64,000 nt of DNA from Paecilomyces variotii (Eukaryota): NCBI GenBank assembly GCA_004022145.1, contig RCNU01000004.1. One strand, written 5' to 3'. Under the pieces are notes generated by a model. That model saw only the letters and a list, made by a program, of their open reading frames with translations, did not search any database and was not told where the DNA came from. The translations under genes were made by a program, and so were the position numbers. Numbering within the stretch: position 1 is the first letter of the stretch; every line of letters starts with the position of its first letter. Of the stretch, positions 48,325 through 54,847 are shown in pieces.

Positions 48325-50040
48325 AGACCATATCCCTTGTCGATGGTGTTACGAGATGAGTCACGGTCACTCATTCCCGAGTGACGTCCTTGCCTGGTCG
48401 TGCTGGTTGCCCAGGTTGGATTCACACCAGAAGTATCAATTCCGCATAACTTGATAGGCTGCAAATCCTGGGAAAATACCCAAATCTAGCAAACATGCAG
48501 TCTGTTTAGATATCATGCATTTGGGTAAGCGGTCTGATAGATATTCTGTGTCGATATTGTCAAATAGCCTGCTTTTTCTGCGAGATTTACTATGATCATT
48601 GAACGACCCCGAAGTAGGACTCAGACCAGGCAAACAAGCAGGCTGCAGAATTCGAAATCTTCGACAACCAATATCACTCCAGGGACAGAGTTCCTTCACC
48701 ATTTCCGCCTTGCTCCAATGACGTAAGTTAGTATGACTGTTAATTGCTTTCCTTCAGACTGGAAATCTCTATAGTATCATCTGTGAGGCAGTGCGATCAT
48801 TTACTGTCTGCTCCGTGGAACGTAATAGCCAGCAATGCCTTTGCCATCAACTCTGGAATGTGATCAACCGGGCACGAAGTTTAAGTTAACCAGTATGACT
48901 CGACGGGGCAGCTCTTCAATGTAGTAGGTTCATAGCCTCGAGAAAGTTTGCTGTAGAGTTGCACTCGTAAAATGTATGCGCCGTACTAATAATATCTTCC
49001 TGGATAGGCGTCGATCTCTCTCTTCACACTGGAACATACTCTTGACTTCTGGAGATCTATCGTAATGGCCTCAGGATCGCCTGACTCCAACTCGTATCGG
49101 GGCAATCTGTCAGGTCCCATCCGGCGCCCCAGGGATCGTGACTACTGTAGGTCCGCAGAGATCGGCCACTAGGATTCTCCAGACTGAGCATCCGAGTGGT
49201 TTAGGAGGGTAAGCACGGGCTCAAGATCTTCCCGGTAGTCAGTGCGCATGGCCGTGAGACGGTTAATAATAATAGGTGATGCTGGAGTAGAGTAGAGTAG
49301 AATTCCCATCCGTAAGATTACTATTCTTGCATACTCACTTGCGGCCATGGATGCGCGGGACCTGACGCCAAGTAATAATCCTAGAAGACCTAGAGAACGC
49401 TCCTAATCCAATCACTTTGAGGATCAGCGCTGTCCGTAAGTCAAGACAAGTGCGCGACGCCCGGTCAGCCTTGCAGCTAAATGTAAAACACCGGGCAACC
49501 TGGGGAACCAAGAGCCTCCTGCGCACCCGGGTTGGGTTGTCGACCATCCAGCGAGCTTTGTTCGTCAAGAGGAGGGTAGCGATATGTGCTTCTCTCGTAT
49601 CCTCATTCGATAGAGCAGACCATGGCCCTTTCTTCATGGAGAATCGGCCCCAGGTCCCCAGCACAGCCTCTGCCTGGGAGGGCGAGATCTGCCGTCGACT
49701 AACGGGCGCCGCCTCGAGTTTGGACGAGTTCAGGAAGCGACAAGGGCTGGCCGTCCCTGATGATGCTCATTTCCACTCGCTGGAGTGGCAGCTGGACATC
49801 CATTTTCTCCTTTCTGTTACTCAGACTGCTGAAAAAGAGAACTTCCTGGAGGCTGTTCAGCTCACGGGACACGGTTCAGCACGCGCGCCAGGCTGCACTC
49901 ATTCCTGGCCTGTCACTTGCCCCTCGCGATCGGCGTTGCTCACTCAGTCTATATATACGAGAGGCTTTCAAGTCGAATGTGCTCTCGTTGAGCAAAGCCG
50001 CACGCAATAACGGCTCGTTCTGATCGCAGGAGAGAGAACC

Positions 50041-51353
50041 ATGACGGGCGCATCCAAGCCCAAGCAGATCAAGCAGATTGGCGTGACTGAAGTCTACCGC
50101 TCGCAGGCTGAGAAACCACTGGTCGAGTATGTTTATTGTTCCCCGCAGCCTGACCCGATCTATATAAATTATAACCAGACATTCTTGTCGACAAGCTCTG
50201 AACTGACTTCTCGCGTGTGATAGTATCGTCTTCGTACATGGCCTCAACGGCCATCCCAAGGATACATGGACAAGTCGCAATACAGATGTGTTCTGGCCGG
50301 GCGACTTGCTGCCTGAGATCCTCGAGCCGTATCGAGTGAGGATCCTGACATACGGATACAACGCGAACGTCACAGCATTCACGGAGGGCACATCGAAGGA
50401 CAGAATCCACCATCATGCGGAGACTTTGGGAGCGGACCTCTCAGCTAACAGAAATGTAAGTTGATGCACCTTTCTACGGAATAGGGTCTTCTTTTGCTAA
50501 ACGAAAAGTAGCTGCGGGGAGCTTCAGAAAATCCTATCATCTTTGTTTGTCACTCGTTGGGAGGTCTAATCGTAAAGCGCGCTCTGATATATTGTCGAAG
50601 CGTGGCAAATGAGAAGCTGGAGCATCTCAGATCGATCTACGTCTCGACTTATGGGATCCTCTTCTTAGGAACGCCGCATGAGGGTTCAGATATCGCGAAA
50701 TGGGGTCTCCTACTGCAGAACATCTGCAGCGCAGTGCTTCCGAAGAGGTTTATGGACTCGTCGCCTCAACTTATCAAGGCTCTAAAGTCGGATAGCGAGA
50801 CTCTGCAGAACATCAGCCGCTTGTTCGTGGACATCCAGCCTCGGTTCCGCATCTACTTCTTCCACGAGACAAAGCCCACGGACCTAAAGGGCACGCGTGA
50901 ACTCATCGTCGACGAACGTTCTGCTGCCCCCAACTTTGACGGAGTGGAGCGCATGGGTATCGAAGCGGATCACAGTCATATGTGCAAGTTTGACGATGAA
51001 GATGCACCTGGCTACGAAGCAGTCGCTGATGCGCTCATACGCTATGCGCGCGACGCCCCGGCTTTTATCGCCAATAGATGGGTGCAGGAGAAGCGAGAAT
51101 TGATGCTCGCGAGAAAGGCAAGGGCTGACGAGATCTATAATGGTTAGCTCTTCGAACGAAATGATCTATTTTGCCCATGGTGCTAATTTATGCAGGGGGG
51201 AGGGATACTGCTTTCACTGGAAGCATGCCAGACATTGGCCAGAAGGGTACGGAACAGCATCTTCTTCCAGCACCTGGCAGTGAAGTTACCTTGAAGCAAT
51301 ATGAAGTAGAAGAAGTCGGCTCAGGAGACGAAAAAGTGCCAGTAGCCCGATGA
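50041..51353 (+). CDS. Predicted short isoform: hydrolase effector only, with an alternative terminal exon
   Basis: The same donor (51143) joined to the proximal acceptor 51195 (branch GCTAAT 51182-51187; 53-nt intron) stays in frame for about 52 codons to TGA 51351-51353. Confidence 0.65.
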
Positions 51354-54300
51354 CGAGTGATTGTTTCAGGCACCAAATGCGACTTGCTAAAACTTTCCTA
51401 TCTGTGCTATAAGGCTGCTTTCCTGTTCAATCAAGAATACGATTTGTTTCGCTGTCAGATCTTTGCTGACTCTTCCCTTCTTTTTCCGTAGGCACTCCGA
51501 ACACCTACCCCCCACGCCCAGCTTCGGAGGGAATAAATTCGCCCCTGTCCTGGAGTCTCGAGCTCCCGACACAGCAGAGCCCTCTTTTCGTTGTCCCACC
51601 AGGCTTCCACCCGAATGCTTTCTTCGTCGGTATGGAGAAAGAATTGAAGGAGCTACATTCGAGGCTGTTCAAGGCAAAAAAGCGCGCCGAACGCGTTACG
51701 GCCGTACTTATCTGTGGAGGCCCAGGATCTGGCAAGTCACAGCTTGCACGGGAGTATATTTACACACATCGCCAGGAATATCCAGGGGGGGTCTTTTGGA
51801 TTGATGCCAAATCGTTACAGTCAACATCAAACTGCTTCTGGGATATTGCTCAAGCGGCCGCTCTTGTCGATGACCACGAGTTTGGAAATCCAGACCTAAG
51901 AAACGCCGACAGATATGTGGAGATCGTGCGAAACTGGTTCCAATCAAGGGAAGAATGGCTACTGGTATTTGACGGCCTTACTTTCGACAAAGACGAGGAT
52001 ATCAACGATTTCAAGCAGTTTCTGCCCTTCAACAAGAACAGCAGCATCATCTACACGTCTATCAACCGGACACTGCGGAAGAAACAGCGATTATTTGAGC
52101 CATACTGTCTGATGGTACAACCGCTTAAAGTCGAAGAGGCTTGCAAGCTCCTCTTCAAAGACCTAGGGATAAAACTGCCGACGATAAAGCAAAGGCAAAA
52201 GGCGAAGGAGCTAGCTGAGTATTATCAGTGTTTGCCGCTGGCGATTCATGCAATTGGCCATCGTCTCAATGCTTCTTCGAAGCCTATTGAGACTTACCAG
52301 ATCAACTCTCACCTGACCGATGAAAAGCTGGCAGAGCCATACCTGATCATTATGAATGATCTCTGGGTGAATAAACACTACGAAGCGTTGAACTTGATAA
52401 ACTTGCTATCCTTCTTGGGACATCACGTACCTGTTGGCCTTCTTACCCTGGGGAAGTCGGAACTGGACGCCTTCAACGTCCAGATCATGACTAGCATCCA
52501 TGCTGGAGAACCAGGAGATCTTGACAATACGTTTGCCGTCCTAATTCGCTACGGGCTGATCGAGAGAGGTCCTGATCACTACAACCTGAAACGGAAGAGT
52601 CCGACCTTCGGGGGCGCTGGCGAGGATTTGCCAGACGTGAAAGCAGTCGCGCCTGATCTGTCTGAATCACAGACTGACGGTAGCCTGGAGACGATGGTCT
52701 CGTCTGTATACCGCAGTGCTATTGATGTGATCAAGATCCACAGTGTCGTACAAAGGTTTTGTCGCGATGAGCTGATACTGATGGACGATGAGCAGCGCCA
52801 GTTACCTAACTCCCAACGGAGGAGTCCCGACAGAGGTATGCAGGATGCAGGATTCCATGATTCCTGGTTGGTTGTTGCAACGAGGGTCTTCTGCAAATCT
52901 TACGAAAATGCGAGCATGAAGATGCGAGACTCGAAGGACTCCGGGCTGGTCAAGGACTATCGGGAGTATGAGACACACGCAGGAACCCTTGCTGAACACT
53001 TCTCGAAGAAAAAGCTCTCGGTCTCGCCGCCTATTGTTCGTGAAGCCCGTGAGCTCCTGAAACAGGTCGCCAAGAGCATCAAGAAAGACATCCAAAGAAT
53101 ATCACCCAGTTCATCCCAGGAGTCGTTTCGACACCAGAAGTCAATCTTCGACCGTTCAAGTAGCTCCTCATCCTTTCCTGAGTCATCGTCCGCAGACGAG
53201 GGCCCGGGACGCTGGGATGGAAGTGAGACCGGTTCCATAAGAGTCGAGTCCCCGCAGGAAATGAGGCCTAGTCATCGCGTCCGTCTGGATCCTTTCCCTC
53301 CGCATATCTACAGAGGATCCTCTCAAGAACCGGACGCGGGATATGAGACCGACGGAGAAGGCAGACGCAGAGCTCATGGAACATCCCCCACGCTCTCCCA
53401 GATAACGGAGAAGCCGACGCCGCCTGCCTCGAGCCCTCCTCAATCGTCAGAGGAACAAGGTTGGGAGGTAGTCCATAGACCTAGGTCGAAGATTCCCATT
53501 CCAGCCAGGAGTTCCCGGCCCAAAGGCAGAAGAACCTCTCGAGACCTTGGCCAGTTCAGGCCAAAGCCGGCCCTTACCAAGCTCTCTTCGGTTCAATGTA
53601 AGGGCGCTGTTCGAGACCCAATATCGGCACCGATCTCGAGAGCTGAGGCATCGCTGGCCGCAATGCATCTGCCTTCACGCAGAGGTTCTCAGCCTATTAC
53701 TCGTGGACAGCTCCACAAATCAAACAGTGTAACTTACGCAACGATTGCGGCCGGGCCATCGCGAGGAAGAGGACGAGCAAAGACTCTATCATCCAGGGGT
53801 AGTTCTCCGTCTCCTGCCTCAGCAGCCCTAGCTCGTTCTGCTATGCCCCTACGGAACCATTCGTCAGGAGACTCGCTGAGAAGTCGCTCTAGCAACGTAC
53901 AATCCTCACCTTTCTCAGCAGAGGCAAAATTAAGCCACTCTGCCCATAGCGAATCTGGTCTTGCACTTCCTGGATCTAGTCCGAGGACTCTGGAGCCAGT
54001 CTCAGCACCTGGCTCTCGCCGTCATTCCCGTCAAGGGTCTTCCTCTAGATCCGTGGACATCACCAGAGAACTGTCTTCTGGCCTTTCCCCTGGAGGTCTT
54101 CCGCCGCTACCTTACGATGAGGAAATTTCGATAACTCGTCGGCAGCATGCTGGTTCAACTTCCATGTCACCTGTTACGTCTCCCCCGATGCGTTCCCGCA
54201 GTCCAGTCCCACATCCTTCAGCAATTCTACCAGGGGCGTCACCCACTCATATACCGGGAGGTTACACATCTGAGCCGCCGATCTCTGACGGCGAGCCCAT

Positions 54301-54847
54301 GTCTCGAGGCCCTTCGGCGCAGTCGACTCAATCCTGGCACACAGATCCTACTAACATCCGATACCAACCTGCAGGCACCGCTATTCCAACCATCGGACCT
54401 GCTATACCAGCGACACCGCTCAATGGACCTTCTCAGTTCATCCCACAACCGCAGTTGTTATCGGGCACTGGAGGTTGGGCTGGAAATGGCAACGAGAATG
54501 TCTTGCAACCGGAGGCCGCTTATATTCCTCAGGATGTTCGTGCAGCTCATCTCAGCGGGCAATGGACAAGATTCGAATACGGTGGAGAGCCTGAATCCTT
54601 GTATCCTAGTGATCTTGCGTACAGCCTCCACGATCCACGGCGCAGACTTCAGAATTATGGACCCGTGCAGGAAGGAGGACTGCCTCGCCATATTCCAACA
54701 CATAATGCCGGTGTCTCGGTCGTCCCTCCTGCTGTGTCGTCAACCTCTTCGCCACAGATTCCCTTTGCACGGGGAAGCGCAGTTCGACGAGCAAGGAGCG
54801 GCAGTTCTCCCTCGCGCGGCATCAGCGGCCTCGGATTGCGCATGTGA
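50041..54847 (+). CDS. NLR-like STAND protein: N-terminal SesB/PGAP1-like alpha/beta-hydrolase + NB-ARC + long disordered tail (long isoform)
   Basis: Exons 50041-50126, 50224-50455, 50512-51142, 51492-54847. Hydrolase motifs DIVFVHGLNG, CHSLGG, FLGTPH and ADHSHMCKF. NB-ARC: Walker A GGPGSGKS, GVFWIDA, Walker B WLLVFDG, CLPLAI and IHSVVQ. Confidence 0.88.

Follow-up and report, generated by a model that had tools for sequence, protein, structure and literature searches.

How can a single fungal NLR-like gene supply both a receptor and a free form of its predicted effector enzyme? This question is raised by a locus of Paecilomyces variotii in which the exons of a predicted lipase, an alpha/beta-hydrolase, are followed by a long exon with an NB-ARC domain. 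The locus lies on contig RCNU01000004.1 (assembly GCA_004022145.1), of which we analysed a stretch of 64,000 nucleotides (nt), called the window below, and all parts of the gene are on its plus strand. A first-pass annotation of the window had proposed that this one gene makes a free lipase as well as a lipase-NB-ARC protein, and that the donor at 51143 chooses between two 3' splice sites, A and B. Using public RNA contigs, database relatives and genomic comparisons, we found both RNA forms, and we propose that the choice is made in a composite exon, which is either spliced at an internal donor or read through to a polyadenylation site in the following intron. We put the probability of this reading at about 0.8.

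Two RNA forms and a proposed composite exon

The hydrolase exon was located where the first-pass annotation had placed it, ending at 51142 before a phase-1 GTTAGC donor, and so were the two acceptors, A at 51195 (branch GCTAAT) and B at 51491 (branch GCTGAC and a pyrimidine tract), both of them canonical and in frame. The exon behind acceptor A (AG at 51194-95, downstream of GCTAAT at 51182-87) starts at 51196 and, when read through, encodes G-GRDTAFTGSMPDIGQKGTEQHLLPAPGSEVTLKQYEVEEVGSGDEKVPVAR up to a TGA stop at 51351-53. The exon behind acceptor B starts at 51492 with G-TPNTYPP...PPGFHPNAFFVGMEKEL in the NB-ARC frame, which stays open to 54847. Exon A carries two phase-1 donors in frame with 51492, AGG/GTACGG at 51247 and GCA/GTGAAG at 51280; the former had been underrated earlier, when only the weaker GTGAAG was named. 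The sequence evidence taken alone is weak, because an open frame of 52 codons behind a random AG is not rare. It is the RNA contigs and the comparative data that place exon A beyond chance.

For the RNA evidence, we used the assembled contigs over 49900-52400 of four runs (X1, X2, X4 and X13) from four studies; 20 public rows matched. X1 and X2 are labelled only 'RNA?', and the contigs of both are without introns. These are contigs and not reads, so that rare variants drop out, and contig depth is a hint only and cannot rank the parts of the gene. The joint from the lipase exon to acceptor A (51142^51196) was seen in three of the four runs, and the contigs of X4 break off on either side of it; those of X1 and X13 start near 49990. 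Downstream of acceptor A, the RNA runs on into the tail and beyond its stop. An X2 contig spliced at introns 1-3 continues unspliced as far as 51415, an X1 contig reaches 51457 and then reads AAAAAAAA, and an X4 contig reaches 51459, followed by A13 and other letters. Since the genome reads GATCTTTGC at this point, the A-runs are untemplated. These A-tails, present in two of the four runs and in two studies, fall into the interval 51360-51480 where the first-pass annotation had proposed to look for a polyadenylation site, and a motif scan found an A-rich AAGAAT about 25 nt upstream of the cleavage position.

The second form was seen in one 753-nt contig of X1, which joins 51246 to 51492 (GT..AG, 245 nt skipped) and has a short side of 28 nt from 51218. 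The same junction is contained in P0001, a 'hypothetical protein' of P. variotii with 1451 amino acids (aa) that is 100% identical to the lipase exon and reads ...IYNGGRDTAFTGSMPDIGQKGTPNTYPP... across the joint. In X2, an NB-ARC contig of 4205 nt stops exactly at the acceptor. The direct joint 51142^51492 appeared in the assembled contigs of none of the four runs, and the donor GTGAAG at 51280 was used by no contig in these runs, though it keeps the frame. Acceptor B is thus reached from 51247 (X1 and P0001), and the idea that the donor at 51143 chooses between two 3' splice sites did not hold. An internal exon 51196 spliced on to 51492, which had been held to speak against that idea, was indeed seen in X1 and P0001, with GTACGG at 51247 as its donor and not the expected GTGAAG at 51280. 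The broader proposal, that one gene provides the lipase both free and fused to NB-ARC, gained support, as spliced contigs run through tail and stop into A-tails and the tail appears to be under purifying selection (see below). The RNA contigs also support a switch at the boundary between the effector and the NOD.

The locus therefore has the make-up of a composite exon: the two forms have the upstream exons and acceptor A in common, an internal donor is followed by an in-frame stop, and polyadenylation takes place before the downstream acceptor (Table 1). From the gene model and P0001, the short form is predicted to have 368 aa and the long form 1451 aa. The intron between the internal donor and acceptor B (51247-51491) has 245 nt, the other introns 97, 56 and 53 nt; it is this long because a coding sequence and a 3' untranslated region (UTR) lie inside it. 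Its branch starts about 6-8 nt 3' of the poly(A) cleavage site.

Table 1 Parts of the lipase-NB-ARC gene in the window, with the evidence for each.
Feature	Position	Strand	Evidence or remarks
Exon 1, ATG at 50041	50041..50126	+	Gene model; joint 50126^50224 (GT..AG), removing intron 1, in 4/4 runs (contigs)
Exon 2, N-terminal alpha/beta-hydrolase part (VFVHGLNGHP)	50224..50455	+	Joint 50455^50512, removing intron 2, in 3/4 runs (contigs)
Exon 3, main lipase exon with CHSLGG, IVDE Asp and DHSHMCKF His; phase-1 end before GTTAGC	50512..51142	+	
Intron 3, 53 nt, branch GCTAAT 51182-87, absent from both products	51143..51195	+	51142^51196 in X1, X2, X13
Composite exon, common part (mini-exon), 17 codons GRDTAFTGSMPDIGQK, in both products	51196..51246	+	RNA contigs; within P0001
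Internal 5' splice site GTACGG, the switch point, inside Gly-Thr codons of the read-through frame	51247..51252	+	Joint 51246^51492, X1 and P0001
Short-form-specific tail GTEQHLLPAPGSEVTLKQYEVEEVGSGDEKVPVAR and stop TGA 51351-53	51246..51353	+	Covered by contigs of X1, X2, X4, X13
3' UTR of the short mRNA, poly(A) cleavage at 51457 (X1) / 51459 (X4)	51354..51459	+	Untemplated A-runs
Branch GCTGAC 51465-70, pyrimidine tract and acceptor AG 51490-91 of the long intron	51465..51491	+	
Last exon of the long form	51492..54847	+	Linker PPGFHPN 51596-51616, NB-ARC about 51635-52333, helical region, stop 54845-47
Walker A GGPGSGKS	51716-39	+	
Walker B LLVFDG	51959-76	+	
Ser/Pro-rich stretch	from about 53108	+	Within the last exon of the long form

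From these forms, we propose the following course of events. If the spliceosome takes the donor at 51247 together with the branch and acceptor at 51465-51491, the resulting mRNA would encode the 1451-aa alpha/beta-hydrolase-NB-ARC protein, and use of this donor would strip away the tail with its stop as well as the 3' UTR and poly(A) site. If the donor is left unused, the frame would be read through for 35 more codons to the stop at 51351, and cleavage with polyadenylation would follow at about 51457-59, a few bases before the branch, giving a 368-aa hydrolase with a private tail. The two outcomes would be mutually exclusive because cleavage takes away the acceptor, and splicing and polyadenylation may well be in kinetic competition. 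Contig depth over tail, lipase exons and NB-ARC exon was 42/37/12, 997/997/227, 121/100/13-32 and 33/20/14 in the four runs; as a hint only, the tail was at least as deep as the lipase exons in all four, and both were deeper than the NB-ARC exon. The short form may accordingly be the more abundant product. No contig of the four runs covers 51460-51490, and contig cover informs neither way on full retention of the intron.

Several other features of the contigs were noted. In X13 (organism B, a relative), the lipase exon shows 13 differences in 626 nt and the mini-exon and tail (51195-51355) show 0 in 161 nt, where about 3 would be expected at that rate. The spliced-lipase contig of X2 (3307 nt) reaches 1997 nt upstream of 49900, either as an overlapping neighbour transcript or as a long 5' extension. 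In X1, a joint 52214^52298 skips 52215-52297 with CT..AC ends, that is GT..AG on the minus strand with the donor GTAAGTC, and a loose end at 52379 resumes at 52433, a second skip of 53 nt with CT..AC ends after a 2-nt shift. These joints suggest a spliced antisense transcript over the NB-ARC coding region, seen in one run in short contigs of depth 6-12 with sides of 28-29 nt.

Conservation of the tail and of the splice signals

The search with the lipase exon gave 537 relatives, and the following counts were made on the best 120 of these 537. They are mostly 'LipA and NB-ARC domain' proteins of 1300-1550 aa whose lipase exon is 63-76% identical, and they come from Aspergillus, Penicillium, Talaromyces, Rasamsonia, Onygenales, Chaetothyriales and metagenome-assembled genomes (MAGs) of lichens; 108 of the 120 are annotated as fusions and 12 are short (<500 aa). 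Through its 100%-identical entry, the gene can be assigned to P. variotii and placed in a conserved group of 'LipA and NB-ARC domain protein' orthologues. The conservation of the lipase exon appears to be far above that of a typical variable NLR, which points to a conserved orthologue group and not to a variable paralogue family. The database models of P. variotii and P. lecythidis include the mini-exon. Four of the 108 long models skip it, all from Penicillium (P0034, P0048, P0062 and P0063), and one P. canescens locus (L009, 100% identical) carries two discordant models, P0048 and P0050. The annotations also conflict over the tail, which 27 of the 108 long models (within P0008-P0119) read into the long protein with unconserved continuations. 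A short lipase alone is annotated in many genomes.

The tail consists of 35 short-form-specific residues (YEVEEVGSGDEK...) with the pattern LLPxP...YE[VI]EE...V.V.R before the stop, and other species show ...LLPxPxxxVTLxxYE[IV]EE...V.V.R, likewise followed by the stop. Nine of the 12 short relatives end with ...LP...YE[IV]EE and a few acidic residues, often continued by V.V.R[RK]. From a second search, directed at short relatives, 120 proteins of 203-648 aa were listed, including those of Talaromyces marneffei, Penicillium oxalicum, P. digitatum, Pyrenula and lichen MAGs. A hidden Markov model (HMM) of the tail, built from 15 tails and applied with a cut-off of E<=0.01, matched 29 of the 120 listed short proteins; most of these matches start with G[RK], and 23 of the 29 end at most 8 residues from the C-terminus.

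We then compared 80 metagenome loci, in which the NB-ARC exon was sought by the motif P.GF[HR].N at most 1.5 kb from the lipase exon. It was found downstream in 42 loci, 36 of which match the tail HMM at E<=0.01, a count that includes 14 training loci and duplicates (the 15th training sequence, L011, lies outside the 42). The independent matches number nine and belong to one group (L033-L039, L041 and L042). By eye, a tail of the YE[YIV]E[FE]E type with its stop was recognised in five further loci (L012, L013, L030, L031 and L040). The reverse-strand control gave matches in 0 of 80 loci at E<=1. L024, L050, L073, L076 and L080, where the junction has no intron, are paralogues. The short metagenome contigs (L010, L011, L013 and others) are genomic sequences with introns and not transcripts, hence they provide no poly(A) evidence from other species.

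The ratio of nonsynonymous to synonymous substitution rates (dN/dS, Nei-Gojobori), taken from donor to stop, ranged from 0.07 to 0.83 and was below 1 in all 40 computable pairs, for example 0.07 for L005-L006, 0.12 for L058-L059, 0.14 for the window and L001, and 0.27 for L016-L021. Tail differences at codon positions 1/2/3 amounted to 171/154/289 in group A, 46/79/113 in group B and 107/95/163 in group C, with third-position changes predominating in A and C and outnumbering those at either other position in B. Nucleotide identity was higher in the tail than in the stretch from the stop to acceptor B in each of the 11 pairs compared. A search of 51000-51700 against Rfam gave no match, therefore no known intronic small nucleolar RNA or other RNA family explains the conservation; the predicted RNA fold of 51236-51500 was no better than shuffled sequence (z = +0.82), with no stem bridging donor and branch. 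Given the dN/dS values, the identity contrast, the lack of an Rfam family and the lack of excess folding, conservation at the protein level is the simplest reading. Judged from these comparisons, the tail frame is under purifying selection and has been kept in Eurotiomycete-like and lichen-like loci and proteins. The conservation of the short exon and the low dN/dS, which the first-pass annotation had suggested looking for, were thus borne out across lineages. This coding conservation speaks for production of the short protein, which is probably made and functional.

The splice signals around the tail are conserved as well. In an alignment of the window with four Penicillium-like loci, the exon-3 donor, the intron-3 branch and acceptor A are kept, as are the mini-exon block ATGCC.GA (Met-Pro-Asp, within SMPD[IL]) and GGTA.G at the internal donor. 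LLP.P, VTL[KR] and YE[IV]EE show codon-like conservation with third-position changes; downstream follow the stop, an unalignable stretch, and then GTCAGAC..GCTGAC and YAG. More widely, a phase-1 GTA.G donor stands at the homologous Gly codon in the window and in 17 of 17 loci of groups A (Eurotiales-like), B and C, in the variants GTACGG, GTAGGG, GTAGGA, GTATGA, GTAAGG, GTAAGA and GTAAGC. With a phase-1 GT at this codon, the donor sequence forms part of Gly-Lys, Gly-Arg or Gly-Thr codons in the reading frame of the tail. A phase-1 acceptor [CA][GA]TAG is present in 17 of the 18 sequences examined, the remaining contig ending too early, and donor and acceptor are both of phase 1 wherever a contig reaches the NB-ARC exon. 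The donor, the tail frame, its stop and the acceptor are therefore conserved features of the locus, and both RNA forms and the poly(A) ends are observed in the RNA contigs. The conserved donor, tail peptide, stop and acceptor argue for a function retained over a very long time.

A further element, GTC[AG]GA[CT], lies 3-5 nt upstream of the GCTGA[CT] branch (4 nt in the window, where the two span 51454-51470). It is exact in the window, L001, L005, L006 and L009, with the variants GTCACAC in L008 and GTCGGAT in L058/L059. The poly(A) cleavage positions of the window, 51457 and 51459, fall within it.

Weighing the alternatives

Other accounts of the locus have to be set against the composite exon. 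Had the donor at 51143 a choice between acceptor A, giving the short form, and acceptor B directly, the long protein would have 1434 aa and lack the 17-codon mini-exon. Such skipping is what the four Penicillium models named above show, with the lipase exon fused directly to the NB-ARC exon; one P. canescens locus has two models, and acceptors A and B are both canonical and frame-keeping. The RNA points the other way, with the direct joint in none of the four runs, 51142^51196 in three and 51246^51492 in one, counts in which contigs may have dropped a minor skipped form. Moreover, the mini-exon is part of the P. variotii and P. lecythidis models, and SMPD[IL] and the internal donor are conserved. 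We consider a switch between alternative 3' splice sites to be quite unlikely. Attenuation alone is another account, in which intronic polyadenylation acts as a brake on the NLR-like protein and the short mRNA or protein has no function of its own. A brake needs no conserved peptide, yet the frame, motif and stop position of the tail are kept across distant lineages, dN/dS is below 1 with a third-position excess, and conservation is higher in the tail than beyond the stop. In addition, since the last exon of the short mRNA contains this stop, the transcript would not be an obvious target of decay. In favour of a brake, the NB-ARC exon contigs are shallower than those of the lipase in all four runs, and premature termination in introns is widespread in the related Aspergillus fumigatus, where 154 of 484 3' ends within coding sequences are intronic or beside an alternatively spliced intron (PMC12810187). 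Attenuation without a role for the short form is, on this evidence, unlikely.

It is also conceivable that two genes are adjacent here, one for the lipase, which ends at 51457, and one for the NB-ARC protein, which has a start of its own; the contig that connects them would then stem from rare read-through splicing or be an assembly chimera. Only one contig with a 28-nt side connects both parts, for other species a short lipase is entered as a protein of its own by many annotation pipelines (120 listed), and a conserved Met (GMEKEL) stands 46 codons into the NB-ARC exon. However, the 45 codons before this Met (…SPLFVVPPGFHPNAFF) are strongly conserved as protein and hold no in-frame ATG, so that the NB-ARC exon would be translatable only as a lipase fusion. 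The phase-1 donor and acceptor match in 17 of 18 sequences, and matching phases together with an ATG-less linker argue against two independent genes. The X2 NB-ARC contig stops at the acceptor exactly and not within the intron, and the great majority of relatives (108 of the best 120 of 537) are annotated as fusions. Two independent genes are thus highly improbable.

Several points weigh against the composite exon, the account that we prefer. The long junction is seen in one contig of one run with 28 nt on its short side, under the 31-nt rule, and its other support is a database gene model that may itself be predicted. As the RNA consists of assembled contigs, isoform ratios, strand and exact ends are soft, and the A-tails come from two of the four runs. 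The exact P. variotii tail was found in no protein of a collection of 5.8 billion, where only P0001 matched, through its mini-exon part, and the 368-aa form is known from RNA contigs and sequence alone. The motif is carried by the 27 of 108 long models mentioned above, so that the long form of some lineages could contain the tail too. Locus L045, orthologue-like and with an NB-ARC exon, has no tail, and four Chaetothyriales-like loci have a weaker homologous donor (GTGCGC, GTGGGC, GTACGA). The dN/dS pairs are non-independent, and the region covers only about 35 codons.

These data also point to a systematic annotation problem, since long models either include the tail (27/108) or skip the mini-exon (4/108). 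In many annotation pipelines the locus falls apart into a gene for a short lipase and, presumably, an NB-ARC gene that lacks its head, and the P. variotii short form is absent from the 5.8-billion protein collection.

The encoded proteins and their relation to known systems

Pfam recognised the NB-ARC domain with 35 bits (cut-off 23.5), and an alignment of 53 sequences shows no variation at its residues G78, G80, K81 and D160. About 45 conserved codons (...SPLFVVPPGFHPNAFFVGM), preceded by no in-frame ATG, stand at the beginning of the NB-ARC exon. For the hydrolase, P0001 scored just under two Pfam cut-offs (DUF676 20.2 vs 20.3, Abhydrolase_6 25.7 vs 26.3); its orthologues P0053 and P0101 are above the Abhydrolase_6 cut-off, and P0053 is also above that of DUF676. 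In P0101, S121 and D240 of the triad are at least 90% conserved and H260 is invariant among 114 sequences, and the nucleophile elbow reads CHSLGG, in which Cys replaces the first Gly. With a Ser-Asp-His triad and a nucleophile elbow present, the protein is a predicted serine hydrolase.

AlphaFold was applied to the short-form orthologue P0101, where 10 aligned sequences gave an unusable model with a mean predicted local distance difference test (pLDDT) score of 50, and 114 sequences gave a mean of 80. The latter model is an alpha/beta-hydrolase with a helical cap, 10-residue blocks mostly scoring 80-98 and lower in the cap. Foldseek matched it with thioesterases, monoacylglycerol lipases and other serine hydrolases at 9-16% identity, and a sequence search of the PDB with P0053 gave no match. 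After the hydrolase, residues 274-319 (about 51010-51142 of the window) form a single helix of about 45 residues in the model, common to both isoforms, which is a candidate oligomerisation element. The tail (residues 320-382, pLDDT 43-57) docks nowhere in the 114-sequence model, so the structure offers no clue to its role. A complex prediction of the 35-aa tail with the first 640 aa of the NB-ARC exon, run without supplied alignments, returned 'no answer' with a score of 0.00 and is no evidence either way. The tail matched no Pfam family at E<=0.01; it is acidic and probably disordered and looks like a short linear motif.

Free SesB bears a C-terminal amyloid motif. An amyloid tail of the HET-s, sigma or PP type was considered here and rejected, as P0053 and P0101 match no such family at E<=0.1 and the composition is acidic and proline-containing. 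At the far end of the long form, Pfam found no C-terminal ANK, WD40 or TPR repeats in P0001 at E<=0.1, and none were precomputed for the best 120 of 537 relatives. The region 53108-54844 of the window encodes about 580 Ser/Pro/Arg-rich aa, the last 477 of which contain 17% Ser and 13% Pro. The lack of a Pfam repeat domain here is unusual among NLR-like proteins; several blocks of the region are nevertheless conserved in the consensus of the orthologue alignment. As for membership of the fungal NLRs, a central NB-ARC domain with Walker A and B and an N-terminal effector domain are both predicted. The missing repeats weaken this assignment and do not exclude it, because only about half of the fungal NLRs carry Pfam repeats according to Dyrka et al. 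2014 (PMC4986451).

Since the hydrolase domain and the long helix are common to both forms, the short form may be the constitutive enzyme or may partner the receptor form. The first-pass annotation had named an amplifier, a decoy or an independent enzyme as candidate roles for it. A wider picture can be drawn only tentatively, and we hold it to be possible and rather doubtful. The gene would be an ancient one-gene receptor/effector pair of Eurotiomycete-like and lichen-forming lineages, in which an abundant short lipase carries an acidic tail as a docking or targeting motif and the rarer NB-ARC isoform nucleates or gates hetero-oligomers through the shared hydrolase and helix. The splice/poly(A) choice, possibly together with the antisense transcript, would set the ratio of receptor to effector. 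If this were true, the locus would stand, in evolutionary terms, between NLRs that unite all parts in one protein and systems in which receptor and effector have separate genes.

The type of RNA processing proposed here is already known. The choice between the secreted and membrane forms of immunoglobulin mu is a switch at a composite internal/terminal exon. Like it, the P. variotii gene combines a weak donor within an exon with a stop in frame and a poly(A) site that both lie in the next intron; splicing precludes cleavage and vice versa, and the two predicted proteins have a common N-terminal part and a different short C-terminal tail. In contrast to immunoglobulin mu, the gene belongs to a filamentous fungus, the intron has 245 nt, and cleavage occurs a few bases from the branch point. 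Our literature search returned nothing that joins intronic polyadenylation with filamentous fungi. An article on end mapping in A. fumigatus (PMC12810187, RNA 2026) calls its cases the first report of premature termination in Eurotiomycetes. These cases come from the same fungal class and likewise combine an intronic 3' end with an intronic stop to give a shortened protein; the main text of that article has 0 occurrences of NB-ARC or lipase, and no conserved isoform-specific peptide is described in its consulted sections.

Fungal NLRs with sesB-like lipase effectors, as well as two-gene NLR/effector systems, are described by Dyrka et al. 2014 (PMC4986451). The present gene resembles the sesB-type systems in having an alpha/beta-hydrolase, probably related to SERAC1/DUF676, before the NB-ARC domain and in the occurrence of free and receptor-linked lipase forms. 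It differs in that both forms come from one gene, the tail has no amyloid or Ses match in Pfam, and ANK, WD40 and TPR repeats were not found. The 'LipA and NB-ARC' term also turns up in work on conidial fusion of Colletotrichum. In Tuber melanosporum, codon-sized micro-exons of NACHT-ANK genes are alternatively spliced (Iotti 2012, cited in PMC4986451 and PMC13449251); they diversify the repeat domain, whereas the P. variotii switch drops the whole NOD module. This Tuber case is the only alternative RNA processing that the consulted sections of these two sources mention for fungal NLRs, and release of an effector domain by RNA processing was not found in the portions of the fungal NLR literature that we covered.

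Parallels are also known from plants. Tobacco N has the isoforms NS and NL, both reported to be necessary for full resistance, and Arabidopsis RPP7 undergoes intronic alternative polyadenylation at a site from a domesticated retrotransposon (PMC9201817). As in these plant genes, RNA processing lets one NLR-type gene give rise to a complete receptor and to a truncated product. No element like that of RPP7 was seen at the P. variotii locus, and unlike the plant truncations, which carry TIR or CC(-NB) signalling domains, its short product is a complete predicted enzyme with a private tail conserved in two fungal classes. As far as the literature was searched, three points are new: that this event occurs in an NLR-like gene of a fungus, that it is deeply conserved, and that the tail specific to one isoform is conserved as well. 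A fungal NLR-like gene can thus, in all probability, yield its effector domain as a separate protein through RNA processing, for which the plant NLRs provide the precedent.

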